This document shows, one piece after another, positions 3,825 through 36,627 of a DNA stretch of 64,000 nt; the stretch's first letter is position 1; each line of letters starts with the position of its first letter. The DNA is from Planctomycetota bacterium (GTDB taxonomy: Bacteria > Planctomycetota > UBA8108 > SXIK01), in assembly GCA_965223265.1 (NCBI GenBank), contig OZ244999.1:64001-128000 (forward strand). Reading direction: 5' to 3'. The position numbers and the translations under genes are program-made. Below the pieces are notes generated by a model. The model saw nothing but the letters and a program-made list of their open reading frames with translations. It was not told the origin of the DNA and did no database searches.

Positions 3825-5380
3825 GTGATTCGCAGGGTCCAGCTCAGTCCCCTGAAGGGGTACAGCCGCAATTGCCGGATCTTGCCCCGGTCTTGGCCTC
3901 CAAGAATCCGCTCCACTGGGTGGTCGTCTTTGGTCCTGGAGCGATCGTTGCGTCGCTCACGATCGGCACCGGCGAGCTCATCTTCTCGGCGCGTACCGGC
4001 GCACTGTTTGGCTACAACACGTTGTGGCTGTTCACGATCACCTGTTTGATCAAGTGGGCGCTCGTCTTTGCGACCGGACGGCACCTCGTCGTCAGCGGTG
4101 CGCACCCGTTCGAGCGCTGGGCGTCGCTGCCTGGACCTCGAGCTTGGTTTGTGTTCGTCATGCTGCTTTTCGGGCTGCTGACGTTCCCGGTTTGGGTTGG
4201 CTTCCTCAGCATGACGCTCGGCTCCTTGGGGACGGCATACTACTCGCGTGTGCCTGAGGAGGCGTGGGGCGCTGTGGCTGTCATTCTGGTCACGTTTTTA
4301 GCTTTCGCCGGTGGCTACACCTGGCTCGAACGCATCCAGATGGCGATCGTCTTCGCACTTCTTGGCACCGTCGCCGTCTCGTGCTTTCTTCTGAAGCCGC
4401 AGCCGGAGTGGCTCGAGATTGTGAAGTCCCTGTTCGTGCCCGGACCGATGGAATATCCAGATTGGGTAGCGAGCGCTGACCCGGTGCTCGCGAAGAGGCC
4501 GCCGATGCTCGAGACGATCAACACACTTGGGGTGATCGGCGGCAGCGGCTTCGACTACTTGGCGTATGTTTCGTTTCTACGCAACAAGTCTTGGGGCCTA
4601 AGCCGTGGCCCCTCTGCGAGTGCGGCACAGATCGAAGCTCTCGACCAAGCGCGTGGCCCCGTGCTGCGAGGTTGGATTCGTGCGCCGCTCATCGATGCAA
4701 CGGTGAGTTTCGTCATCATTCTCGTCTTCAGCGTCGTCTTCGTCGCGCTCGGACACATCGTCCTCGGCGCGGAGCAGCAGGTCCCGGGTGACGAGAACAT
4801 GCTCCAGCTGCAGCAAGAGTTCGTCTCACGAGTGCATCCGACGCTTGAGTATCTTTACCTTGCCGGTGCGATTCTGGCGCTGCTCGGCACGGTGTACGGC
4901 ATCACGGAAGTGGCGCCGGCGGTGGTCGAAGAGTGCGTCGCGGCGATCACGGGGCGATCGGCTGGGCGAGCGTCAAAGCGGGTTCGTTTTCTCGCGATCC
5001 TCTGGTGCAGTGGCGCCGGATTGGCTGTGATTGGGTGGAGTGCCTGGACTCGGCATGAGACGGGAGAGATGCGACCGCCGCAGCTTGTCGGGCTCATCAC
5101 GCCGGTCAACCTTTTCACTGGGGTCATGGCGTGCGGGTTCATAGCGATCCTCAGCCCGTGGATGGACCGAAAGTTCCTACCAGCCGGGCTGCGAATGAGC
5201 CCACTTCTGGCGGGGATCAATCTAGTCGGTGGGGTGTTCTTCGTCGGTCTCAGTCTTGTCGGCTATTGGAACAGATATGGCCCGAGCGGTGAGCTCTGGA
5301 TACCGACCCTCTTCTTCGTGACGACGGTGGTGTTCGGACTCGTCGTCGCCGTTTTGTTTCGCGCCCGGGTTTCTTCATGA
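3821..5380 (+). CDS. Nramp-like (LeuT-fold) membrane transporter
   Basis: FGPGAIVASLTIGTGELI motif and about 11-12 hydrophobic segments; ATGA overlap with the upstream stop. Confidence 0.75.
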   Translation: MSDSQGPAQSPEGVQPQLPDLAPVLASKNPLHWVVVFGPGAIVASLTIGTGELIFSARTGALFGYNTLWLFTITCLIKWALVFATGRHLVVSGAHPFERWASLPGPRAWFVFVMLLFGLLTFPVWVGFLSMTLGSLGTAYYSRVPEEAWGAVAVILVTFLAFAGGYTWLERIQMAIVFALLGTVAVSCFLLKPQPEWLEIVKSLFVPGPMEYPDWVASADPVLAKRPPMLETINTLGVIGGSGFDYLAYVSFLRNKSWGLSRGPSASAAQIEALDQARGPVLRGWIRAPLIDATVSFVIILVFSVVFVALGHIVLGAEQQVPGDENMLQLQQEFVSRVHPTLEYLYLAGAILALLGTVYGITEVAPAVVEECVAAITGRSAGRASKRVRFLAILWCSGAGLAVIGWSAWTRHETGEMRPPQLVGLITPVNLFTGVMACGFIAILSPWMDRKFLPAGLRMSPLLAGINLVGGVFFVGLSLVGYWNRYGPSGELWIPTLFFVTTVVFGLVVAVLFRARVSS

Positions 5381-6628
5381 CTTCGCAGGGGGAGGGCGCC
5401 GCCTGCTTTTCAGTAGGCGGCCGCGCGTGATGGCGTTCTTTCCGTGGCGCGTGAGGATCTTCTCTTCTGCGCGTGCAAGCTCGGTCGCCGACTGTGTCGC
5501 ATCGCCGTCAAAGAACGAGAGTTGCTGCTCGGGGCGCGCAGTGAGCTGGCTGAGACCAACACCGAGCAGCCGGACGCTTGGCCGCCGTAGCGACACCTTG
5601 GTGGCGAAGAGCCTGTGGGTCACCGGGTAGATCTCCTCGACGAGTTGTGTCGGGTTGGCGAGCGTTTGAGATCGCGACACCGTGAAGAAGCTGCCGTCAC
5701 GAACCTTCAGTGTGACCGTGCTGCCCCAGAGTCTTTCATGGCGCAGACGCGACGCCACCTGGTGCGACAGCGAAAAGAGCACGTCATCGATCGCGGCGGT
5801 GTCGTCGCACGGAATGAACTCCGCGAACGTCATCTCATGGCTGATTGAGCGAGCCGAACGCGACGTGTTGACCTTCCTCCGGTCGATCCCGCGCGCCAGC
5901 CGTGCGATGTGTGCACCGAGGTCGACACCGATGAGCCGCTCAAGTTCCTCTGGTCGGCGCCTTGCGATGTCACCGATTGTCTCGACTCCCGCATCGCTCA
6001 GCCGCTCAGCCGTCTTCGGCCCAACGCCCCAGAGACGGCGCATGGGAAGCGGCGCCAGAAACTCTGCCGCGCGACCGCGGGGCACGACGACGAGACCACT
6101 CGGCTTGCGGAGATCGCTTGCGACTTTCGCGAGGAACTTGTTCTCGGCAACACCGATCGAGCACGTGAGGCGCGTTTCCGCCGCGACGCGGCTCTGTAGT
6201 TCTTCGGCGACTCTGGCGGCTCGTGTCGCGGCTGCGGCGTCTGCCTCGGAATTTACAGGCTCGGTGTCTCCGCGCCGCTGCGGATAGCAACCGGTGACGT
6301 CGAGAAACGCTTCGTCGATCGACAGCGGTTCAACCAGTGGCGTCACTTGCCGAAAGATGGAGAAGACTTGCCGCGACATTTCGCTGTAGCGTGACAGGCG
6401 TGGCCGTAGAAAGACGCCGTGCGGGCAGCGACGTACCGCTTCGGTGGCCGGCATCGCACTATGGACGCCATAGCGGCGCGCCTCGTAGCTCGCCGTTGAA
6501 ACGACACCTCGCCCTTGCGGCGTCCCACCGACGATCACCGGCTTGCCAGCGAGATGCGGATGATCGAGGATCTCGACCGCGGCGAAGAACGCATCCATGT
6601 CGACGTGAAGAATCCAGCGCTGCTGCAT
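5375..6628 (-). CDS. dinB: DNA polymerase IV
   Basis: ILHVDMDAFFAAVE, STASYEARRYGV, SIDEAFLD, LAKVASDLRKPSG, LWGVG; start taken as MQQRW. Confidence 0.93.
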   Translation of the reverse strand: MQQRWILHVDMDAFFAAVEILDHPHLAGKPVIVGGTPQGRGVVSTASYEARRYGVHSAMPATEAVRRCPHGVFLRPRLSRYSEMSRQVFSIFRQVTPLVEPLSIDEAFLDVTGCYPQRRGDTEPVNSEADAAAATRAARVAEELQSRVAAETRLTCSIGVAENKFLAKVASDLRKPSGLVVVPRGRAAEFLAPLPMRRLWGVGPKTAERLSDAGVETIGDIARRRPEELERLIGVDLGAHIARLARGIDRRKVNTSRSARSISHEMTFAEFIPCDDTAAIDDVLFSLSHQVASRLRHERLWGSTVTLKVRDGSFFTVSRSQTLANPTQLVEEIYPVTHRLFATKVSLRRPSVRLLGVGLSQLTARPEQQLSFFDGDATQSATELARAEEKILTRHGKNAITRGRLLKSRRRPPPAKS

Positions 6629-27606: not shown

Positions 27607-28035
27607 CATGAGAATGCCGCAGGTTTCCACAGTTCGTTGAAAGAATGGCTCCAGTAGTCCTCACCAACTCTTCGCACGAACAACGACGTACTCTACTGAT
27701 TCGGCGGCGGGGATGCAAACTGCCGGTCGCGCCCACGGTCCTCTGGCAGGGCTCGGTCAGCGCCGCGGCATTGAAGCTGGTCCGATCGTGGAGTTAAATA
27801 GAATGAGTGGATCCGTTGCCTTGCAAACACCGTACTGTCTGAACTGTGACGCGACGAAAGAGCTCGTGAACCGTTTCCGAGCGTGAGGTATAGGTTCTGC
27901 GAGTTCACCGGTCGACCTCGACGGGATCGGCGCCTCGCGCGTGAACGAGCAGGTGGCCGAACCGGCCTGACCCTCCCGAACAGGATCCAGCGGACGCGAA
28001 CAACGACCAAGCATGCTTTCGCCGAAAGTGAGTCC

Positions 28036-31000
28036 GTGAAAAATTTGAACCGACTCTTCGTAGCGCTCTCGATGGTTTTAGCGATCCTTGCCGATTCCGG
28101 CGTCGAAGGGTCGCCGGAAGTGTTCTTCGAAAAGACCATCGCGCCTCTCTTAAGTCGCCACTGCGTCGAATGCCACAGCGAGTCGACGAGCAAGGGGCGT
28201 TTGGCGCTCGATAGCGTTGAGGGGCTTACGACCGGCGGCCGGCGCGGTCCAGTCATCGTTGCGGGCGATCCCGAGGCAAGTCGACTCTACCGGGTTCTCG
28301 TCGACACCAAGCCACGGATGCCGAAGAACGCCCCGCCTCTCGAAGCATCTGACGTCGACAGCATTCGTCGGTGGATCGTCGATGGTGCCGTGTGGCCGGA
28401 GGGAGTGCAGCTCGAGCCCGAGGAAGTTGACCTCACGGATTGGTGGTCGCTACGACCACTCTTGCGACCATCGATTCCGCACGCGAGCGCAGCCGTTGGC
28501 AAGACGACGCGCAACCATCCCATCGACGCTTTCCTAGAGGCGAAGCGGCACGAGCTGGGATTGACGGCTTCGCCGCGCGCCGATCGTCGGACGCTTCTCC
28601 GCAGGCTCTACTTCGATCTGATCGGGCTGCCTCCGTCACCAGCGGACGTGCGGAGATTTCTCGACGACACAGATGAAGGCGCGTACGAGCGGCTCGTCGA
28701 TCGACTGTTGAGCTCACCACGTTACGGTGAGCGCTGGGCGCGTCACTGGTTGGACGTGGCGCATTACGCCGATACGCATGGCTACGATAAGGACAAGCCT
28801 CGACCCAACGCTTGGCCTTATCGCGATTACGTCGTGCGTGCTTTCAACGAGGACAAGTCGTACGGCCGTTTCATTCGTGAGCAGCTCGCCGGGGACGAGC
28901 TCTATCCGGGCACACTCGACGGTGTGGTTGCGCTTGGTTTCGTCGCCGCCGGACCGTGGGATTTCATCGGCCACGCCGAGGTGCCGGAGACAAAGTTGGA
29001 CGGGCGCGTCGCACGGAACCTTGACCGCGACGATATGGTGACGACGGCGATGAACGTGTTTCAGAGTACCACCGTGCAGTGTGCTCGCTGCCACGATCAC
29101 AAGTTCGATCCGGTGACGCAGCAGGAGTACTACAGTTTGCAGGCGGTGTTCGCGGCGGTAGATCGCGCCGATCGTCCTTACGACACGGATCCAGCGATCC
29201 TGGCTCGGCGCCAGCAGCTGCAGCGCGAAAGAACGCGGTGGATCGGCTGGCTGCATGAGTTTGACGTTACCGTTCGCGAGCGAGCGGGCGCGCGACACGC
29301 CGAGCTGGACGAGGCCTTGCGCCAGGCTCGCAATGACATCCGGTCGCGACGCGGTGCCCGCGGTTTCCACAGCGAGATCTCGACGGAGCAGGATAGCGTC
29401 AAGTGGGTTCAGGTCGATCTCGGCGCGGCGTATGTGATCGAGCGTGTTGAATACGTCGCCTGCGACGATGATTTCAACGACATCGGTGCCGGATTTGGCT
29501 TTCCGCTGCGTTATCGCATCGAACTTTCAAGCGATCCGGCTTTCGAGTCGTCCGTCACGATCGTAGATGCCACCACGGCCGACGTCCCGAATCCCGGAGT
29601 CGACGTGCAGATGGCTGCTGTGGCGGCTGGCACGAAAGCGAGGTACGTGCGCGTGACCGCGACAAAGTTGACGGCGCGTCAAGATGGTGAGTACGTTTTC
29701 GCCCTCGCTGAATTGGTCGTCACCGGACGTGACGGCAGTAACCTCGCAAACGGTGCGGAAGTGGCCGCATCGGATGCGATCAGCGTGGAGAAGCGGTGGC
29801 GGAAGGAATACCTCGTCGACGCTTCATACCCTGGCCTGAACTCGGAGAAAGCGCCGTCAAAGCGGCGCCATCGATTGCAATCGGAACTGAACGCGTTGCG
29901 TGCCGAGATTGCCGGGGAAAGTCTCGCCGCCGATGAGCGGCGCGTGGCGGACCGGCTAGCTCAAATCGAAGCTGAGCTCAGCTCACTGCCCGAGCCGCAG
30001 CTGGTCTACGCGGCGACGATTCATCACGGCCGCGGCAGTTTTCGAGGCCGAGGACCGTTCGGTGGCGCGCCACGCGAGATCCGGGTCCTCTATCGAGGCG
30101 ACCTCCGGACGCCGGGTCCGGAGGCGATTCCGGCCGCGCCCCGCTTTTTCGACGAGCCTTCCGGGCGCTTCGAGCTAGACTCCGCGCATGGCGAGAGCGA
30201 GCGGCGGGCGGCGCTGGCGGAGTGGCTTGCGGATCATCGCAACCCTCTGACCTGGCGCTCGATCGTCAACCGCGTTTGGCATTATCACATGGGGCGCGGC
30301 CTCGTCGATTCGCCGAACGATTTCGGCCGTATGGGGCAGCGCCCGAGTCATCCCGAACTTCTCGACTGGTTGGCGGTAGAGTTTCGCGACGGCGGGCAAT
30401 CATTCAAGCGCCTGCATCGCTTGATCGTGACCAGTGAAGCGTATCAGCAGTCCTCCGCTGCCGACGAGTCGAAGACGCGCATTGACGGTGGAAACGTCTA
30501 CCTGTGGCGCATGAATCGGCGGCGCCTTGAGGCGGAAGCGACGCGCGACTCGGTGCTTGCTGTCAGCGGGCAGCTCAATCGGCTCATGTACGGTCCGGGA
30601 TTTCGGTGCTTTGTTCTCGAAAAGCCCGAGCACTCACCGCACTACGAGTACCATAAACACAACCCTGCCGACGAGCAGACGCACCGGCGTTCGATCTACA
30701 GATTTATCGTGCGCTCGCAGCCTGATCCATTCATGCAGTCGCTCGATTGCGTCGATTCGTCCCAGAGTGTTGCGAAGCGCAACGAGACGTTGACGGCTCT
30801 TCAGTCGCTTGCTCTGCTGAACAACAAGTTCATGCTTGCGATGGCAGCCGAATTCGCCGCACGTCTGCGGGCCGCCTCCGACGTCCCCGAAGAGCAGTTG
30901 CGGGCGGGTTATCGCCTGGCGCTGGCGCGCGAACCGACGCCAGAGGAACTGCGGGACCTCGTGGAATACGCGTCGGTCCATGGACTGGAGAATGCGTGCA

Positions 31001-31041
31001 GGGTATTATTCAATCTGAACGAGTTTGTCTTCGCGGACTGA
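28036..31041 (+). CDS. Planctomycete cytochrome c + DUF1549 + discoidin (F5/8-like) + DUF1553 protein
   Basis: CVECH and CARCH haem motifs, YGERWARHWLD, KWVQVDLG, PSHPELLDWLA, NLNEFVF; start taken as GTG 28036. Confidence 0.88.
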   Translation: MKNLNRLFVALSMVLAILADSGVEGSPEVFFEKTIAPLLSRHCVECHSESTSKGRLALDSVEGLTTGGRRGPVIVAGDPEASRLYRVLVDTKPRMPKNAPPLEASDVDSIRRWIVDGAVWPEGVQLEPEEVDLTDWWSLRPLLRPSIPHASAAVGKTTRNHPIDAFLEAKRHELGLTASPRADRRTLLRRLYFDLIGLPPSPADVRRFLDDTDEGAYERLVDRLLSSPRYGERWARHWLDVAHYADTHGYDKDKPRPNAWPYRDYVVRAFNEDKSYGRFIREQLAGDELYPGTLDGVVALGFVAAGPWDFIGHAEVPETKLDGRVARNLDRDDMVTTAMNVFQSTTVQCARCHDHKFDPVTQQEYYSLQAVFAAVDRADRPYDTDPAILARRQQLQRERTRWIGWLHEFDVTVRERAGARHAELDEALRQARNDIRSRRGARGFHSEISTEQDSVKWVQVDLGAAYVIERVEYVACDDDFNDIGAGFGFPLRYRIELSSDPAFESSVTIVDATTADVPNPGVDVQMAAVAAGTKARYVRVTATKLTARQDGEYVFALAELVVTGRDGSNLANGAEVAASDAISVEKRWRKEYLVDASYPGLNSEKAPSKRRHRLQSELNALRAEIAGESLAADERRVADRLAQIEAELSSLPEPQLVYAATIHHGRGSFRGRGPFGGAPREIRVLYRGDLRTPGPEAIPAAPRFFDEPSGRFELDSAHGESERRAALAEWLADHRNPLTWRSIVNRVWHYHMGRGLVDSPNDFGRMGQRPSHPELLDWLAVEFRDGGQSFKRLHRLIVTSEAYQQSSAADESKTRIDGGNVYLWRMNRRRLEAEATRDSVLAVSGQLNRLMYGPGFRCFVLEKPEHSPHYEYHKHNPADEQTHRRSIYRFIVRSQPDPFMQSLDCVDSSQSVAKRNETLTALQSLALLNNKFMLAMAAEFAARLRAASDVPEEQLRAGYRLALAREPTPEELRDLVEYASVHGLENACRVLFNLNEFVFAD

Positions 31042-31064
31042 TCAGCGAACGGCTGCATTGATTC

Positions 31065-32525
31065 ATGATCGATCGAAGAAGTTTCCTTTGGCAGAGCGGT
31101 GGCGGATTGGGTGGCATCGCACTCTCGTCGATGCTCGGCGCGACGAAGCTCGAAGCGGGTGCAGCCAAGCACGAGAAGCCAGCGCACATACAGCACCACC
31201 CGGCCAAAGCGAAGCGTGTGGTGCAGCTCTTCATGTCGGGTGCCGCGAGTCACGTTGATCTGTTCGACTACAAGCCGCGTCTGATCCGCGACCATGGCAA
31301 GAAATGGGACCCTGGCGAGAAGGTTGAGCTCTTCCAGAATGGACTCGGCCACACGTTCGCGTCGCCGTGGCAGTGGCAGCGCTACGGCAAGTGTGGCAAG
31401 CACCTCACGGAGATCGCGTCGCCGCTCGGCGACTGCGTCGACGATATCGCGTTCGTCCACAACGTCGTCGGCAAGACGGGTGTTCACAGCCAGGCGACTT
31501 ATCTTCATGCCACTGGCTTTCAGCGCCCTGGGTTTCCGGGTGTCGGCTGCTGGGTGAGCTACGCGCTTGGTCATATGAACGCGGATCTACCGACGTTCGT
31601 CGTCCTCCCGGATCACCGTGGTTTTGCTTCCAATGGCCCGAAGAACTGGGGGCCGGCCTTCTTACCAGCGCAGCATCAAGGCACGATTCTGCGCCCGGGC
31701 ACTGAGCGACCGATTCCGGATCTTTTTCCGACTCCAGGCGGGTTCGTTAGCCGCGAGAGTGACCGTGAGGCGTTCTCGATTTTGAAGCGGCTTAATCGAA
31801 GGCACCAGGCGCAGCGCAGTGGCGATTCACGGCTGTCGGCGCGGATCCAGTCATACGAACTTGCGGCCCGCCTCCAGCTGAGCGCCACGGAGGCACTTGA
31901 TATCTCGCAGGAGCCGGCGTACGTGTTGGCAAAGTATGGCCTTGATCACGGCCGCGTGCATTTCGGCGATCGGATCAATCCTGTCGAAGAGACCGATTAC
32001 TTTGGACGTAAGTGTCTGGTTGCGCGCCGTCTGCTCGAGCGTGGTGTACGTTTTGTGCAGATCTGGATGGGTAACGACAACAGCCATCCCCGGCGCAATT
32101 GGGATTCGCATGAGTACATCGAGCGTGACCACGGGCCACTCGGTATCGGTATGGCACGCGGCGCAGCAGCGCTGATTTCGGACCTCAAGGAGCGCGGCAT
32201 GCTCGACGACACGATTGTGCACTGGACGACGGAGTTCGGGCGCATGCCGTGCGCGCAGGGCTCGAAGGGGCGCGATCACAACCCGTTCGCCTTCACGAAC
32301 TGGCTCGCCGGTGGCGGCATTCGGGGCGGCGTGAGCTACGGGCCAAGCGACGAGTGGGGTTACAAGCCGCTCGACCGCGACAAACCAACGATGGTGCACG
32401 ACGTCCACGCGACGATGCTGCACCTCCTCGGCATCGATCACGAGCGCCTGACGATGCGTCACAACGGCATCGACCGCCGCCTCACGGACGTCCACGGACA
32501 CGTGATCCGCGATCTCATCGCGTAA
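31065..32525 (+). CDS. DUF1501 domain protein (Tat-like signal)
   Basis: DRRSFL, AKRVVQLFMSG, TEFGRMP, GRDHNP, RLTDVHG. Confidence 0.92.
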   Translation: MIDRRSFLWQSGGGLGGIALSSMLGATKLEAGAAKHEKPAHIQHHPAKAKRVVQLFMSGAASHVDLFDYKPRLIRDHGKKWDPGEKVELFQNGLGHTFASPWQWQRYGKCGKHLTEIASPLGDCVDDIAFVHNVVGKTGVHSQATYLHATGFQRPGFPGVGCWVSYALGHMNADLPTFVVLPDHRGFASNGPKNWGPAFLPAQHQGTILRPGTERPIPDLFPTPGGFVSRESDREAFSILKRLNRRHQAQRSGDSRLSARIQSYELAARLQLSATEALDISQEPAYVLAKYGLDHGRVHFGDRINPVEETDYFGRKCLVARRLLERGVRFVQIWMGNDNSHPRRNWDSHEYIERDHGPLGIGMARGAAALISDLKERGMLDDTIVHWTTEFGRMPCAQGSKGRDHNPFAFTNWLAGGGIRGGVSYGPSDEWGYKPLDRDKPTMVHDVHATMLHLLGIDHERLTMRHNGIDRRLTDVHGHVIRDLIA

Positions 32526-32856
32526 CGCTTAGTCGCGCAGAGCGACTTGTGCGTGGGGATGGAACGAAGCTTGGCAAACTTGTGCACCATGACATCGTCG
32601 GTGGGACATACCCACACGAGTTTGCCGGAGATCAATAGGCGGAAGCGTGGAATCGTTTTTCGCCAAGATCTAAACTCGAGTTCAAGGAAGCCGCTTCGCG
32701 GCAGGCCCGGTTCGTTCAGGCGTTCTGGGTGACGATCGCCGGCCGCCTCGGGCCACCGGTGTGCTCGCTCTGCGGCCCGTTCGATGAGGCGTAAAGGCGT
32801 CGAGGCGTCGATGATGCTCTTTCTGCAGAAAGCAACCTCTCAGAAAGGAGCACGCT

Positions 32857-33765
32857 ATGACGCCTCTTCGCCAAAAGTTTCTCCAGGATCTGGAACTTGC
32901 CGGCCTCGCCGACGGTACCTGCAGGGTCTACGTTTGGGCCGTCGGGCAGCTGGCGAAACACTATCACCAGTCTCCCGATACGCTCTCGGAAACTCAAGTC
33001 CGCGACTATCTTTTCCACCTCAGGCACGAGCGTCAGTTCGCTATCGGGTCCTTGAAAATCGCCTACAGCGCTTTGAGATTTTTCTTCAGACGCACGGTGC
33101 CGCGCGACTGGAAGACGCTGGAGGATTTGCGAACGCCGAAGGAATCCAAGCTGCCAGACGTCCTCAGCGTCGAAGAGGTTCACGAGATCATCGCGGCGAC
33201 CTGCAGCCAGCAGTGGCGCACCTGCTTCTGGATGATCTACTCCCTTGGCCTGAGGATCTCTGAGGGCATCTCGCTCGAAGTGGGAGATGTCGACGCGGCA
33301 CGCTCTTTCGTGCACGTTCGTGGCGGCAAGGGTGCCGCTGACCGCTATGTGCCGCTTCCCCCCGATACTCTCGAAGCGCTGCGCCGCTACTGGAAGACGC
33401 ATCGCAACCCGCGACTTCTTTTCCCCGCCCGCGGCCGCGGGGACAAGCAGGGACGATCGGCCACGCAGCCCGTGTCGAGGAAGACAGCTCAGGCAGCGTT
33501 GCGTCGCGTCGCCACGCAGCTTGGCATCAAGAAACGCGTTTCGCCCCACACTCTGCGCCACAGCTATGCGACACACTTACTCGAGGCTGGTGTCAACCTC
33601 CGTGTTATCCAGAAGTACCTCGGCCACAGGTCGCTCAAGGCTACGTCGATCTACCTGCACCTTACACGTGATGGCGAAGAGCAGGCCCACGCGACGATCA
33701 ACGCGCTCATGGTACGCCCTCGCTCAGAGGAGGGCAAAGCGGCGAGGACGAACGCCGGCCAATAG
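32857..33765 (+). CDS. Site-specific tyrosine recombinase with N-terminal SAM-like domain
   Basis: LGLRISE (R), GGKG (K), HTLRH (HxxR), LGH, TSIY (Y); AAAGGAG RBS. Confidence 0.93.
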   Translation: MTPLRQKFLQDLELAGLADGTCRVYVWAVGQLAKHYHQSPDTLSETQVRDYLFHLRHERQFAIGSLKIAYSALRFFFRRTVPRDWKTLEDLRTPKESKLPDVLSVEEVHEIIAATCSQQWRTCFWMIYSLGLRISEGISLEVGDVDAARSFVHVRGGKGAADRYVPLPPDTLEALRRYWKTHRNPRLLFPARGRGDKQGRSATQPVSRKTAQAALRRVATQLGIKKRVSPHTLRHSYATHLLEAGVNLRVIQKYLGHRSLKATSIYLHLTRDGEEQAHATINALMVRPRSEEGKAARTNAGQ

Positions 33766-33771
33766 CGCACC

Positions 33772-34902
33772 GTGGCGTCGCTTGCGGAGATTTTCACGCG
33801 CTATGGCGAGGAGTATCTGGAGTGTCACGGTTCCAGCGTGCCTCTGCAGCACCGTCGTGTCCTGGCGCTGCTGAGCGCCTGTGGCACTGGCGATCTGGGT
33901 TACGTGCGCTGGCGCTGCGAGAGCTGCGCTCGCTCTCACCGGACGCCCCGCTCGTGCGGCAACCGCCATTGTCCGGGCTGTCAGTCCTCCAAGAACGTGC
34001 GCTGGCTCGCCGAGCAATTACAGCATCGACTCGAGGTGCCCTACTTTCTCCTTACATTCACTCTGCCCGCAACGCTACGACCCTTCGTGCGCTCGCAGCA
34101 GCGTGCCTGCTACCGGGCGCTCTTTCGCGCCGCCGCTGAATCGCTTCAGAAGCTCGCACGCGATCCACGCTTTCTCGGTGCGGCGCGCCTTGGCTTCACC
34201 GCGGTTCTGCACACTTGGGGACGGGCGTTGGCATATCACCCGCACCTGCACGTGTTGGTGCCGGCCGGCGGCTTGAGCGACGATGGTGCGAGCTGGATCA
34301 CCTCGCGCCCCGACTTTCTCGTGCCGGTCAAGGCGCTGTCGAAGATCTTTCGCGCCAAATTCCGCCACGAGCTGCAGCGGGCTGGTCTTCTCAAGGACAT
34401 TGCGCCTGCGGTGTGGACAGAGAACTTCGTCACCGACTCGCGCGCCGTCGGTGACGGCGAGTCGACACTCACGTATCTATCACGCTACGTCTTTCGCGTA
34501 GCGATCTCCAATGCCCGCATCGTCTCCTGCGACGATGGTCGCGTTCGCTTTCGCTGGAAGAAGTCGGGCAGTCGGCGGTGGCGGACCATGGAGCTCGATG
34601 CTCTGGAGTTCATCCGCCGCTTCCTCCAGCACGTCCTACCTCGGGGGCTACAGAAGGTGCGTCACTACGGATTCCTCAGTCCGCAAAGCGCCGTCTCCCT
34701 CCACGAGGTGCGAGTCTTTGTCGCTAGAGTGAACCCTCCCGCCGACGGCGCACAGATTCATTCCGATGCGAACGGAGCCAGGGCGGCGCCATCGACGACG
34801 ACGGACAGTCCCACCGAACACCCCTTCTGCTCGTGCTGCGGGGGCCGGCTACATGTCATTGCGATCGTCTTTCATCGCGTCGGTTTCCGCGACTCCCGGT
34901 AG
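33772..34902 (+). CDS. IS91-family Y2/HUH transposase with zinc-binding domain
   Basis: CESC...SCGNRHCPGC, HTWG...HPHLH (HUH), YLSRY (Y2), FLQHVLP...VRHYG. Confidence 0.93.
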   Translation: MASLAEIFTRYGEEYLECHGSSVPLQHRRVLALLSACGTGDLGYVRWRCESCARSHRTPRSCGNRHCPGCQSSKNVRWLAEQLQHRLEVPYFLLTFTLPATLRPFVRSQQRACYRALFRAAAESLQKLARDPRFLGAARLGFTAVLHTWGRALAYHPHLHVLVPAGGLSDDGASWITSRPDFLVPVKALSKIFRAKFRHELQRAGLLKDIAPAVWTENFVTDSRAVGDGESTLTYLSRYVFRVAISNARIVSCDDGRVRFRWKKSGSRRWRTMELDALEFIRRFLQHVLPRGLQKVRHYGFLSPQSAVSLHEVRVFVARVNPPADGAQIHSDANGARAAPSTTTDSPTEHPFCSCCGGRLHVIAIVFHRVGFRDSR

Positions 34903-35194
34903 AAAGACACCGTGAACACTCTCCCACCGACCGACCCACTGCGCCCGAAAACCCGCCATGCCAACGGCGGGGCGCCCCCGGTCTGCTCCCACAGTGACCA
35001 GCGCGACTGCCAACGCGAGATTCGGTGCGCTCAGCACGTCGCAGACACCGTTCACGCGGTTGATTCCGCTCCTGGGGCTCCCTCGCGTGAGCCTTATCGC
35101 CGCTGCCTCTCCCTCTGACCTCCCCGTCAAATCGAAGCGTTTCCCATCACGTCCGACGGTCGCTCCTGCGGCCAACGAGGAGCCGCGAGGCTCC

Positions 35195-35363
35195 TTGAAC
35201 TCAGGATTTGGACTCGGCTTCGCTCGCCCAAATCCTCATCCAGTTGAACTCAGGATTTGGACTCGGCTTCGCTCGCCCAAATCCTCATCCAGTTTCGCCC
35301 AAATCCTCATCCAGTTGAACTCAGGATTTGGACTCGGCTTCGCTCGCCCAAATCCTCATCCAG
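35195..35363. repeat. Tandem 49-bp hairpin repeat: 3 identical copies plus a 22-bp partial
   Basis: TTGAACTCAGGATTTGGACTCGGCTTCGCTCGCCCAAATCCTCATCCAG at 35195, 35244 and 35315; partial at 35293-35314. Confidence 0.95.
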
Positions 35364-35619
35364 TTTGGCCATTTCGCGCCGGCCTGGCCGGACGAGTTTC
35401 GCGGGAATTCAACGGCCCTTTCGACTTTTTCGTACCCTGAGAACCCTTGTGCATGTTTAAAAACTCCTGTCCGGCCCTTCGGGGAACTCCAGGAGGGCCG
35501 ATGCCCGCGCCCGTCCTCCGCCACGACCCGAGCGGGATCGCGCCCGAGTCGCTCCTTGGCCTCGACGCTCCTGGCGTTCCCAGGCTCGACGCGAAATGGC
35601 CAAACTCGAGCTAAAGCCA

Positions 35620-36627
35620 TCAAGGCTCAATCGCCACCCACTGCGCTGTTTGCCGACTCTCGAGCATCGCTAGGTTCACACGTAGCGTTTGCAGGCCTTC
35701 GGCCAACGTACAGCGCACGTCGCCTTTGCCCTCAAGCGCATCGAGGAAGACGTTGGCCTGGCGTATGAAGCCGTCGTCGCGCTCTGCAGATGCTGTCGCC
35801 TCGACGTTCCACTCACCGCCCGGCTCCGTGATCGACAGCCAGCGCTGGCGGTGCGACTCGAGCCGAACCGTGCCGTGCTCACAGTTGACCGTGATCGTCG
35901 ACTCGTTCGGCGCTTGAAATTGGTTGAGGGCGAACGAGCTCATGACGCCGCTTTGATGCCGCGCGATCGCGTGGACGACATCCTCGACTTCGACGCCGTC
36001 GAGCACCTTGTGCGCGGCGTCGGCGGTGACTCGCGTGATCGGTCCCACCAGCCACTCGACGGCGTTGACGTGATGCGTGAGCGCATCTTGGATGGCTCCG
36101 CCGCCATGTTCGTGGCGCGTGTAGTAGATTTCGCGGTAAGCCGGGCGGTACGTCGGAAAGTTTTGGCCCGACACCGAGACGACTTCAATCGGCTGACCAA
36201 ACCGCCCGGACAGCACAGCTTCGCGCAGTGATTCGATCAGTTCGATCGAGCGGAGTATGTAGGCGACCGCTACCGTCAAGCCTCTTTCTCGCACCAGCGC
36301 CTCAAGCTCTCGAAGGCCTTGCAAGCTTGTCGACAGCGGCTTTTCGATCAGCAGGTGGATGCCCGAGCGTGCCAGGCGCGTCGCTACCTCGATGTGGAGG
36401 TGAGCCGGTACCGCGACCACTGCTGCGTCGAAGGCGTGATGCTCCAACGCTGTCTCGAGATCATTGTAGGCGCCAACCAGAGGGTACCGCGATGAGACAG
36501 CTTGACACTTCTCGGCGTCCAGCTCGCAGATGGCGACTTCCGTTCTCTGCGTCGCCAAGAAACAGCGGGCGTGGCGCTCGCCAATCGAGCCTGCCCCGAT
36601 CACCAAGACGCGCGTGAGTTGTGCCAT
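35620..36627 (-). CDS. Gfo/Idh/MocA family oxidoreductase
   Basis: VIGAGSIG, IEKP, GGGAIQDALTH. Confidence 0.88.
   Translation of the reverse strand: MAQLTRVLVIGAGSIGERHARCFLATQRTEVAICELDAEKCQAVSSRYPLVGAYNDLETALEHHAFDAAVVAVPAHLHIEVATRLARSGIHLLIEKPLSTSLQGLRELEALVRERGLTVAVAYILRSIELIESLREAVLSGRFGQPIEVVSVSGQNFPTYRPAYREIYYTRHEHGGGAIQDALTHHVNAVEWLVGPITRVTADAAHKVLDGVEVEDVVHAIARHQSGVMSSFALNQFQAPNESTITVNCEHGTVRLESHRQRWLSITEPGGEWNVEATASAERDDGFIRQANVFLDALEGKGDVRCTLAEGLQTLRVNLAMLESRQTAQWVAIEP

Follow-up and report, generated by a model that had tools for sequence, protein, structure and literature searches.

What moves a rolling-circle transposon that also encodes a recombinase of a different class? The question is raised by a 64,000-nt stretch of a Planctomycetota bacterium genome (GenBank assembly GCA_965223265.1, contig OZ244999.1, positions 64,001 to 128,000; hereafter the window), in which positions 32683-35365 form one IS91-family mobile element carrying genes for an Xer/IntI-like tyrosine recombinase and a Y2 HUH transposase. 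An earlier analysis (the sequence-only reading) had described such a recombinase-plus-HUH element, and both junctions that it drew, at 32683 and 35365, match the sequence. It had also called the role of the recombinase in IS91-family elements unresolved, and this role is indeed unaddressed in the literature that we searched. From the comparison of copies, ends and insertion sites, we tentatively favor a model in which the HUH enzyme would supply single-stranded copies and the recombinase would integrate the folded junction at a GTT.

The element as moved extends from CAAGG... to ...CAGTT on the forward strand (32683-35365; 2683 bp). At the left junction, CTCGAG TT is followed by CAAGGAAGCCGCTTCGCGGC, with CAAGG beginning at 32683; at the right junction, CATCCAGTT is followed by TGGCC, and the final T of the element is position 35365. 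The empty site, CTCGAGTTTGGCC, can be read from uninterrupted copies of the host repeat, and it occurs 117 times in the genome. Comparison of the filled site with these 117 empty sites leaves AGTT alone ambiguous, a stretch that lies in the host repeat at 32679-32682 and recurs at the right terminus of the element, and reveals no target duplication made by the element, exactly as the sequence-only reading had proposed. Correct as it was on the junctions, that reading missed both the multicopy status of the element and the location of the site, which is the terminal repeat of a miniature inverted-repeat transposable element (MITE).

The genome, a single 9.18-Mb contig, contains four full copies of the element (the window copy, L002, L003 and L004) plus fragments. 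The full copies are 99.7-99.8% identical, each differing from the window copy by 5-6 substitutions and one indel. In L002 and L003, an additional T following window position 34189 splits the transposase gene, and public contigs contain this variant too. L004 lacks 1 nt towards the end of its recombinase gene, and its right end is truncated, most of the hairpin unit having been lost via TTTGG microhomology. The window copy is therefore the only one in which both genes and both ends are intact. A search for the transposase in 20 other genomes of the same order at E ≤ 1e-30 found it in none.

The host MITE is 247 bp long, with 21-nt terminal repeats (CTCGAGTTTGGCCATTTCGCG) and 5-bp target duplications centered on TA (for example CTAAC, CTAGC and GTTAC in other copies). 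BLAST identified 50 copies of at least 200 bp in the genome and 26 partial matches of 60-200 bp; there are 85 occurrences of the intact terminal repeat and 117 of its first 13 nt. All eight recognizable insertions fall at a single point in this repeat, after CTCGAGTT and before TGGCC. Six of the eight are junctions of CTCGAGTT with CAAGG... (the four full copies and two left-end remnants at genome positions 5438506 and 7550805), and two are junctions of CTCGAGTT with GAAC.... In the window, this outer part of the left terminal repeat, CTCGAGTT, lies at 32675-32682 on the forward strand, and CTCGAG precedes all five left junctions inspected. Since the genome holds 46,523 AGTT and 231,529 GTT sites versus 117 free MITE targets, the specificity of insertion far exceeds that of a tetranucleotide. 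The MITEs hosting the other three full copies are 79-94% identical to the window MITE and have different flanks, and MITE interiors lie in either orientation relative to the element. Near-identical elements thus sit in divergent and variously oriented MITEs, and the insertions must be independent.

The recombinase gene (32857-33765, forward strand; 302 aa) encodes a protein with matches to PF00589 (2e-37) and PF13495 (2.2e-18). The gene for the IS91-family Y2 HUH transposase (33772-34902, forward strand; 376 aa; PF04986, 1.9e-59; PF14319, 3.1e-24) begins 6 nt past its stop codon. The recombinase has the R-K-H-R-H-Y residues and the SAM-like N-terminal domain (PF13495) of the Xer/IntI clade, and R133, K158, H231, R234, H257 and Y266 show no variation across all 24 aligned homologues (56-90% identity). 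Its nearest solved structures are XerA (4a8e), IntI4 (2a3v) and also XerD. Its best NCBIfam matches are XerA and the integron integrase; it remains below the cut-offs for XerA (182 bits versus 220), XerC and XerD, and reaches 118 bits with NF011946 (cut-off 435). The transposase scores 368 bits with NF033538 (cut-off 125), and has HPHLH at residues 156-160 and a YxxxY motif formed by Y235/Y239; all 16 aligned transposases, IS91 TnpA included, have HPHxH and YxxxY. The genome contains no integron integrase (IntI) above cut-off, the top matches being the element's own recombinase, and a host IntI therefore cannot be the enzyme acting here.

The left end consists of CAAGG, GAA and the palindrome GCCGC-TTC-GCGGC (32683-32702, forward strand; palindrome 32690-32702). 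At the right end, a subterminal palindrome, GGAGCC-GCGA-GGCTCC (35179-35194, forward strand; read from the sequence, within a detected repeat), overlaps an inner inverted repeat, GGCTCCTTGAAC (35189-35200, forward strand), that is complementary to GTT plus the left end and whose final four bases, GAAC, form an IS91-type tetranucleotide. There follow, all on the forward strand, three 49-nt hairpin units and one 22-nt partial unit, each full unit comprising GAAC, a 9-bp stem AGGATTTGG/CCAAATCCT, the spacer CATCCA and GTT. Unit 1 (35197-35245) is the sole unit in L002 and L003, the latter with an additional 6-nt CCAGTT duplication. Unit 2 (35246-35294) is a tandem copy with the joint ...CAGTT/GAAC... 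(TRF period 49, 100% matches). The partial unit, found by repeat detection (35295-35316), is the final 22 nt of a unit, and unit 3 (35317-35365; from the sequence and repeat detection) ends at the right terminus ...CATCCAGTT. The extra units account for the 2683-bp length of the window copy.

Two kinds of joint show how these units have been handled. At the tandem-unit joint ...CAGTT/GAAC..., the breakpoint is confined to TT, and an unrelated element in a Desulfocicer metagenome-assembled genome (MAG) has an independent tandem unit with the same joint type, ...AAAGGTT/GAAC... (L061:6230-6335). Solo 49-nt units occupy two other MITEs (L007 and L008) as CTCGAGTT/GAAC-hairpin-CAGTT/TGGCC, which is what remains after exact removal of CAAGG to ...GGCTCCTT; a second, inner pair of boundaries has therefore been used. 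These inner boundaries, GTT/CAAGG and CCTT/GAAC, coincide with the canonical IS91 ter and ori positions, nested inside the element, and the solo- and tandem-unit joints fall exactly there. The sequence-only reading had counted boundaries at a GAAC/CAAG oriIS as evidence against itself, and such evidence is present in part: besides the conserved outer GTT boundaries, the inner ter/ori pair has been used. The junction windows AGTT, GTT and TT are compatible with an integron-like exchange at G/TT, and for the tandem-unit joint they exclude a bottom-strand cut after AAC.

When the ends are joined with one hairpin unit, as in copy L002, an outer stem (GGCTCCTTGAAC with GTT+CAAGG...) encloses the AGGATTTGG/CCAAATCCT hairpin, with an energy of -16.5 kcal/mol (z = -5.4 versus 100 mononucleotide shuffles). 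The same two-storey fold, with the junction inside the outer stem, is the minimum-energy structure in 22 of 22 homologue joined ends, although the inner repeat was picked by best complementarity, which favors this outcome. Scores for the homologue folds range from z = -1.5 to -9.7 (21 of 22 at or below -3.4), and a one-sided bulge of 5-9 nt precedes GTT in all 22. RNAalifold detected no consensus structure in a MAFFT alignment of 14 right ends, because the stems are out of register in the alignment, and we relied on the per-sequence folds instead. Among relatives, the boxes GTCCAAC/GTTGGAC and GTTCAAC/GTTGAAC fit the attC consensus RYYYAAC/GTTRRRY fully. Judging from these predicted folds, the shape of the joined ends, and in most relatives also their sequence, is that of an integron attC site, and the imperfect attC-like stem drawn in the sequence-only reading is borne out in the window element and its homologues alike.

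The architecture extends across a large family. We found at least 7,981 homologues of the recombinase at E ≤ 1e-20 among 8,000 candidates scored; most of the top 120 lie on 1-3.5-kb contigs, which is what a repeat this long should give. Scanning 185,579 species genomes, one per species, gave 599 confirmed matches, of which 80 were analyzed. The nearest locus to the window recombinase has 57% identity, which makes the window element a distant member. The 80 loci come from Planctomycetota, Acidobacteriota, Desulfobacterota, Chloroflexota, Gemmatimonadota, Verrucomicrobiota, Pseudomonadota and Patescibacteria and from a Methanoperedens MAG. A Y2 match is also present in 73 of the 80, nearly always directly downstream and on the same strand, and the closest plasmid-borne Y2 relatives carry the recombinase too.

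Alignment of homologue flanks, a check suggested by the sequence-only reading, came out in its favor. Of 47 recognizable left ends, 45 follow GTT (the exceptions are L099 and L114), with the consensus (C/G)A(A/G)(G/C)N-AAGCCGC-loop-GCGG after it and the AAGCCGC motif 8 nt after GTT in 45/47. Right ends read GGCT...AAC, hairpin, 5-9 nt spacer, GTT. Stems differ by lineage yet remain complementary (AGGATTTGG/CCAAATCCT in the window, GGTTCAGATTGTG/CACAATCTAACC in Methylococcales, CTCTATCGAGAGTGAC.../...GTCACTCTCGATAGAG in Acidobacteriota), and the outer pairs change together (CTTGAAC/GTTCAAG, GTCCAAC/GTTGGAC, GTTCAAC/GTTGAAC and GTTCAAAC/GTTTGAAC). Copy-to-copy comparison in two genomes sets the boundaries at GTT/...GTT/, and in a head-to-tail dimer one GTT is common to both copies.

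Where relatives insert links the family to integrons. In L087, an 85-nt hairpin ending in ...GATGTT precedes the element, and AGGTG comes after it. Downstream, hairpins of the same family, GCCTAAC...GTTAGGC, are found again between five small open reading frames (ORFs) on the minus strand; this locus is a cassette array read opposite to the element. In L117, the reconstructed empty site folds as GCATAAC...GTT/ATGC, and an intI pseudogene begins 690 bp beyond the right end of the element. An IntI above cut-off is present in four of five genomes tested.

The richest case is a Methyloprofundus genome (G024; L141-L190), which carries about 70 copies of a 2438-bp relative, with 67 left ends and 73 hairpin units. 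Three of its four intI genes have element-type recombinase matches in the 25 kb upstream of them, 12 in total; these zones make up 1.5% of the genome, so that about one copy would be expected, an approximately 11-fold enrichment. All 12 are co-oriented with intI, as are all 13 linked cases overall. We sampled 40 regions of this genome, with 49 copies, 34 unique left flanks and nine head-to-tail junctions that share one GTT. The target logo of 33 unique two-flank sites is T(30) T(25) G T T / A(26) T/G(19/12) G/A(15/11). Most insertions there lie outside cassette arrays, and one identical flank is common to six loci, so that the element at these loci is probably nested in another repeat. In a 7-mer R-box test on the empty sites, 7 of 33 had at most one mismatch versus about 3 expected by a rough estimate, a weak signal; the clustering upstream of intI is stronger evidence than this test. 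We considered and set aside a guide pairing of the 5 nt before the cut with AAC and the 2 nt that come after it at the foot of the hairpin. Such pairing exists in the window (GAGTT/AACTC), G024 (TTGTT/AACAA), L088 and L096 and fails in L047, L060 and L081/L082, and we do not rely on it because TT before GTT is common whatever the "guide".

IS91 itself provides the closest comparison. A plasmid copy (L127; NZ_MN510446.1, 127615-131631) is organized as [CGAG-TAG-GCAGCC-TGGC-GGCTGC...orf121, tnpA...GGGATTTAAATTCC-TATCGAT] then GAAC, and this locus contains two IS91 copies in head-to-tail tandem with the joint ...ATCGAT/CGAG.... PMC13181058 places terIS upstream of tnpA and oriIS downstream of it, with the target tetranucleotide next to oriIS and in some cases identical to the ter cleavage site, and gives a single-stranded circle of one strand as the working intermediate. 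The window transposase is a member of this family (NF033538, HUH, YxxxY), and neither IS91-family elements nor the window element make a target duplication. The ends are likewise functionally distinct and palindromic, with one or two oriIS palindromes and one terIS palindrome in IS91, IS801 and IS1294 according to PMC13181058, and one palindrome on the left and two on the right in the window element. By layout, its left end, CAAG-GAA-GCCGC-TTC-GCGGC, is the counterpart of terIS, with the same 7-nt palindrome-to-cut spacing, and the inner right repeat plus GAAC corresponds to ori with its tetranucleotide. Head-to-tail tandems occur among relatives of the window element as they do in IS91.

The differences from IS91 are equally concrete. 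The position of orf121 is taken by a catalytically intact tyrosine recombinase gene. The unit that moves runs 49 nt past the IS91-type ori boundary to a final GTT, and its ends form long inverted repeats around a hairpin. In place of the IS91 targets CTTG/GTTC/GTCC, the target is a GTT within a more extended sequence, either the MITE repeat or an attC box. GAAC adjoins the inner right repeat as in IS91, and the outer flank is TGGC here and A(T/G)(G/A) in G024. The outer terminus, a stem ...ATCC followed in many relatives by TTATTCGTT, resembles the right end of IS91 (GGGATTTAAATTCC TATCGAT), a likeness that weakens the notion of the hairpin unit as simply "extra" relative to IS91. Both right boundaries thus resemble IS91 ends, and either may be the true ori of the HUH enzyme.

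Several IS91-family members in ISfinder (ISShvi3, ISWz1, ISAzo26, ISSod25 and others) have an upstream tyrosine-recombinase ORF, and this group shares the gene pair and gene order of the window element. Invasion of attC sites in cassette arrays in a specific orientation is also known from the IS1111-attC group and from group IIC-attC introns. These use a DEDD transposase and a ribozyme with a reverse transcriptase, respectively, and have no attC-like junction of their own. IS200/IS605 elements differ from the window element in using a Y1 rather than a Y2_Tnp HUH enzyme, with a hairpin and a 3' cleavage site alone being similar. PMC9229058 mentions the IS1111-attC group and group IIC-attC introns, and states that ISShvi3 next to attC "yields a new gene cassette structure". 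Our search of the full-text literature, which had subscription reviews and TnPedia outside its scope, retrieved no account of the end structure of these elements, the GTT rule, the fixed-orientation attC targeting or the role of the recombinase.

Like integron cassettes, the window element has an imperfect AAC...GTT hairpin (outer box, unpaired spacer, inner stem, variable loop), shares GTT at both junctions, and has an outer box that is complete only in the circular form; as in integron arrays, tandems of relatives share one GTT, and relatives insert in attC boxes. It differs in that its recombinase is not IntI and the element supplies its own enzymes, in that its genome has no attI, Pc promoter or array and the element sits in an intergenic MITE, and in that relatives insert at the R'' end, inverse to cassettes where this can be read. 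The CTX-type phages that exploit Xer recombinases (IMEX) likewise combine an HUH enzyme, an Xer-family recombinase and a folded single-strand site, if our proposed logic holds. Here, however, the element, 2.4-2.7 kb long and free of phage genes, encodes the recombinase itself, and its target is not dif.

In the model that we favor, the element moves as one unit, bounded by a target-side GTT and its own terminal GTT. The HUH transposase would act at the nested IS91-type ter and ori sites and make single-stranded copies; the single strand would fold at the junction, with the inner repeat ending in AAC pairing with GTT plus the left end around the second hairpin; the element's own Xer/IntI-like recombinase would carry out a one-strand exchange, at the GTT/AAC triplet, with a target that contains GTT; and the product would be resolved by replication, as happens with integron cassettes and CTX phage. 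If the HUH enzyme excised the inner IS91-type core alone, the 49-nt unit would stay behind, which would explain the solo and tandem units. It is possible, if more doubtful, that the whole branch of IS91 elements with recombinase and Y2 transposase (at least 7,981 homologues) consists of autonomous cassette-like elements, in which the HUH enzyme would copy one strand, the ends would mimic attC, and a distinct Xer-clade recombinase would paste at AAC/GTT.

A number of observations weigh against a recombinase-driven integration. The recombinase scores 176.3 bits with the integron-integrase profile TIGR02249 (cut-off 265), which it matches at 5-181 and 228-312, leaving the IntI-specific segment 182-227 unmatched. 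The integron-like reaction at GTT proposed in the sequence-only reading fits the relatives at attC AAC/GTT boxes (L087 and L117) and the clustering upstream of intI; the enzyme itself stays below the IntI cut-off. The window boxes, CTTGAAC and GTT+CAAG, agree with RYYYAAC/GTTRRRY in AAC/GTT alone. Insertions into attC targets lie at the R'' end in array orientation and not at the canonical R' crossover, and in the MITE target GTT lies in the 5' arm of a potential hairpin, opposite to the attC targets. Two anomalous relatives place the exchange oppositely (G/TT versus GTT/): the right terminus of L057 (~6224-6285), ...TTATTGGAT, reads GAT, and the left flank of L099 (~3900-3912) has GTCA before GAACG. 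Either deviation could be a point mutation. In G024, no copy departs from GTT (49/49 left ends and 55/55 right ends), so the copies there do not distinguish between the two positions. The right-end hairpin may, from its sequence, be an oriIS palindrome for the HUH enzyme, and a cut by that enzyme at the inner ori only would give a circle without the hairpin unit, leaving a full-length strand unexplained. Finally, no head-to-tail junction was found in the assembly, and the circle joint, whose detection the sequence-only reading had proposed, is also missing from Logan contigs of four public runs (one study) over window positions 32400-35800. These contigs collapse the element to 32675-35224; the missing circle joint counts neither way, because contigs drop rare forms.

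The main competitor, which we regard as a serious but less probable possibility, is that the Y2 HUH transposase acts alone, in rolling-circle transposition of the classical IS91 type. Here the hairpin and the second palindrome would be two oriIS palindromes, the left palindrome terIS, and GTT (AAC on the opposite strand) the short motif for targeting and cleavage; attC sites and the MITE repeat would be hit as mimics of the element's own end; and the recombinase would be an accessory that, for example, resolves tandem multimers or, like Orf121 in IS91, controls termination. Precedent speaks for it and against our model: according to PMC13181058, IS91, IS801 and IS1294 transpose with TnpA only, with comparable palindromes and a tetranucleotide target. 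The left end shares the terIS layout and 7-nt spacing, its bottom-strand tetranucleotides across the family (CTTG, GTCC and GTTC) are the ones that PMC13181058 lists for IS91-family members, and the right terminus resembles that of IS91. Transposition by the HUH enzyme alone explains the tandems (nine junctions among 49 G024 copies, and also in IS91 itself), the end layout and the solo units, whose joints fall at canonical GTTC^ / CTTG^ positions; the HUH motif and both tyrosines are, moreover, conserved in 16 of 16 sequences. What it leaves unexplained is the recombinase, with six invariant catalytic residues (24/24) and a gene pair kept across many phyla (73 of 80 loci, and plasmid Y2 relatives too). 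Nor does a three- or four-base target predict eight of eight insertions in one 13-nt site, or the ~11-fold enrichment upstream of intI with 13/13 co-orientation, and the bottom-strand flank 5' of the outer right-end cut is unconserved, unlike the tetranucleotide that IS91 requires.

Improbable in our view is an arrangement of two nested units, in which the recombinase would move the 49-nt unit as a minimal attC-like cassette or landing pad, and the core CAAGG...CCTT would be a separate HUH element targeting the GAAC at the foot of the unit. Solo units in the same MITE site as full elements, GAAC flanking the core on the right as in IS91, and tandem units without cores all fit this picture. Solo units are rare, however, with two versus four full copies and two left-end remnants in the window genome; of nine G024 units examined that have no left end at the expected distance, eight are right ends still joined to internal element sequence and one (L189) may be solo, and the predicted solo joint has no match in that genome. 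In every lineage, furthermore, the pairing of inner repeat and left end spans the unit boundary, and core and unit therefore co-evolve. Least credible of all, to the point of being very unlikely, is the idea that a host integron integrase moves the element as a passive cassette. Homologues do lie in attC sites, and four of five such genomes have an IntI above cut-off, but the window genome has four near-identical copies and no such IntI, most G024 insertions lie outside arrays, and insertion at the R'' end, inverse to cassettes where readable, is unlike that of a cassette.

The comparative data give the recombinase of many IS91-family elements a concrete, testable model with defined substrates, namely the folded junction, the MITE repeat and attC sites, and with defined mutants. 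If the model is correct, it describes a transposition pathway in which work is divided between an HUH enzyme and a tyrosine recombinase, and it links rolling-circle transposons, integron cassettes and CTX-type integration. It would also mean that widespread elements invade integron arrays in a fixed orientation, with a bearing on array disruption, rearrangement and mobilization. Should the whole branch behave in this way, the elements would be orientation-specific parasites of integron arrays, possibly evolutionary kin of attC/IntI, with their specificity in the window genome retargeted to a MITE terminal repeat; the strict 13-nt specificity seen there could serve as a natural example of retargeting.

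The rest of the host MITE in the window extends from TGGCCATTTCGCG... to the right terminal repeat ...AAACTCGAG (35366-35610), with a 23-nt inverted repeat that is 91% complementary. Its target duplication, CTAAA, lies at 32670-32674 on the left and at 35611-35615 on the right, where the matching copy adjoins the right terminal repeat. Many MITE right flanks in the genome continue with a common ...CAGCCCGTTGAAAAAG, and the MITE may sit in or beside another repeat. MITE copies at C1:1898721, 3517646 and 5912690 lack a normal left repeat and have a common left flank, ACCACTGCGCCACCTCTCGA, that looks like part of a tRNA-type sequence; one such MITE hosts L002. Outside any MITE, a rearranged remnant at C1:5931600-5932250 (L005/L006) consists of ~140 nt of right end, with the variant terminus ...AAATCCTCGCGAGTT, joined inversely to a 300-nt piece of the transposase gene.

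Element and MITE together occupy intergenic space, and no gene is interrupted. Upstream (27883-32525) are a 1052-aa ORF and then a DUF1501 protein (3e-130), and downstream, on the opposite strand (35620-36627), is a GFO/IDH/MocA oxidoreductase. We considered an ORF at 34958-35440 as a possible gene; it has no family match and spans the repeats, and we therefore take it as spurious. Other tyrosine-recombinase genes in the genome lie at C1:6408754-6409563, 6528321-6529115 and 2474253-2476931, with two repeats of the last; this thrice-repeated cluster has three adjacent recombinase matches and is apparently unrelated to the element. In a Gallionella MAG (L115:2429-5002), 7 nt separate the right terminus of a related element from the first repeat of a CRISPR array, in which repeats are ~61 nt apart and some 30 copies are present in the locus.

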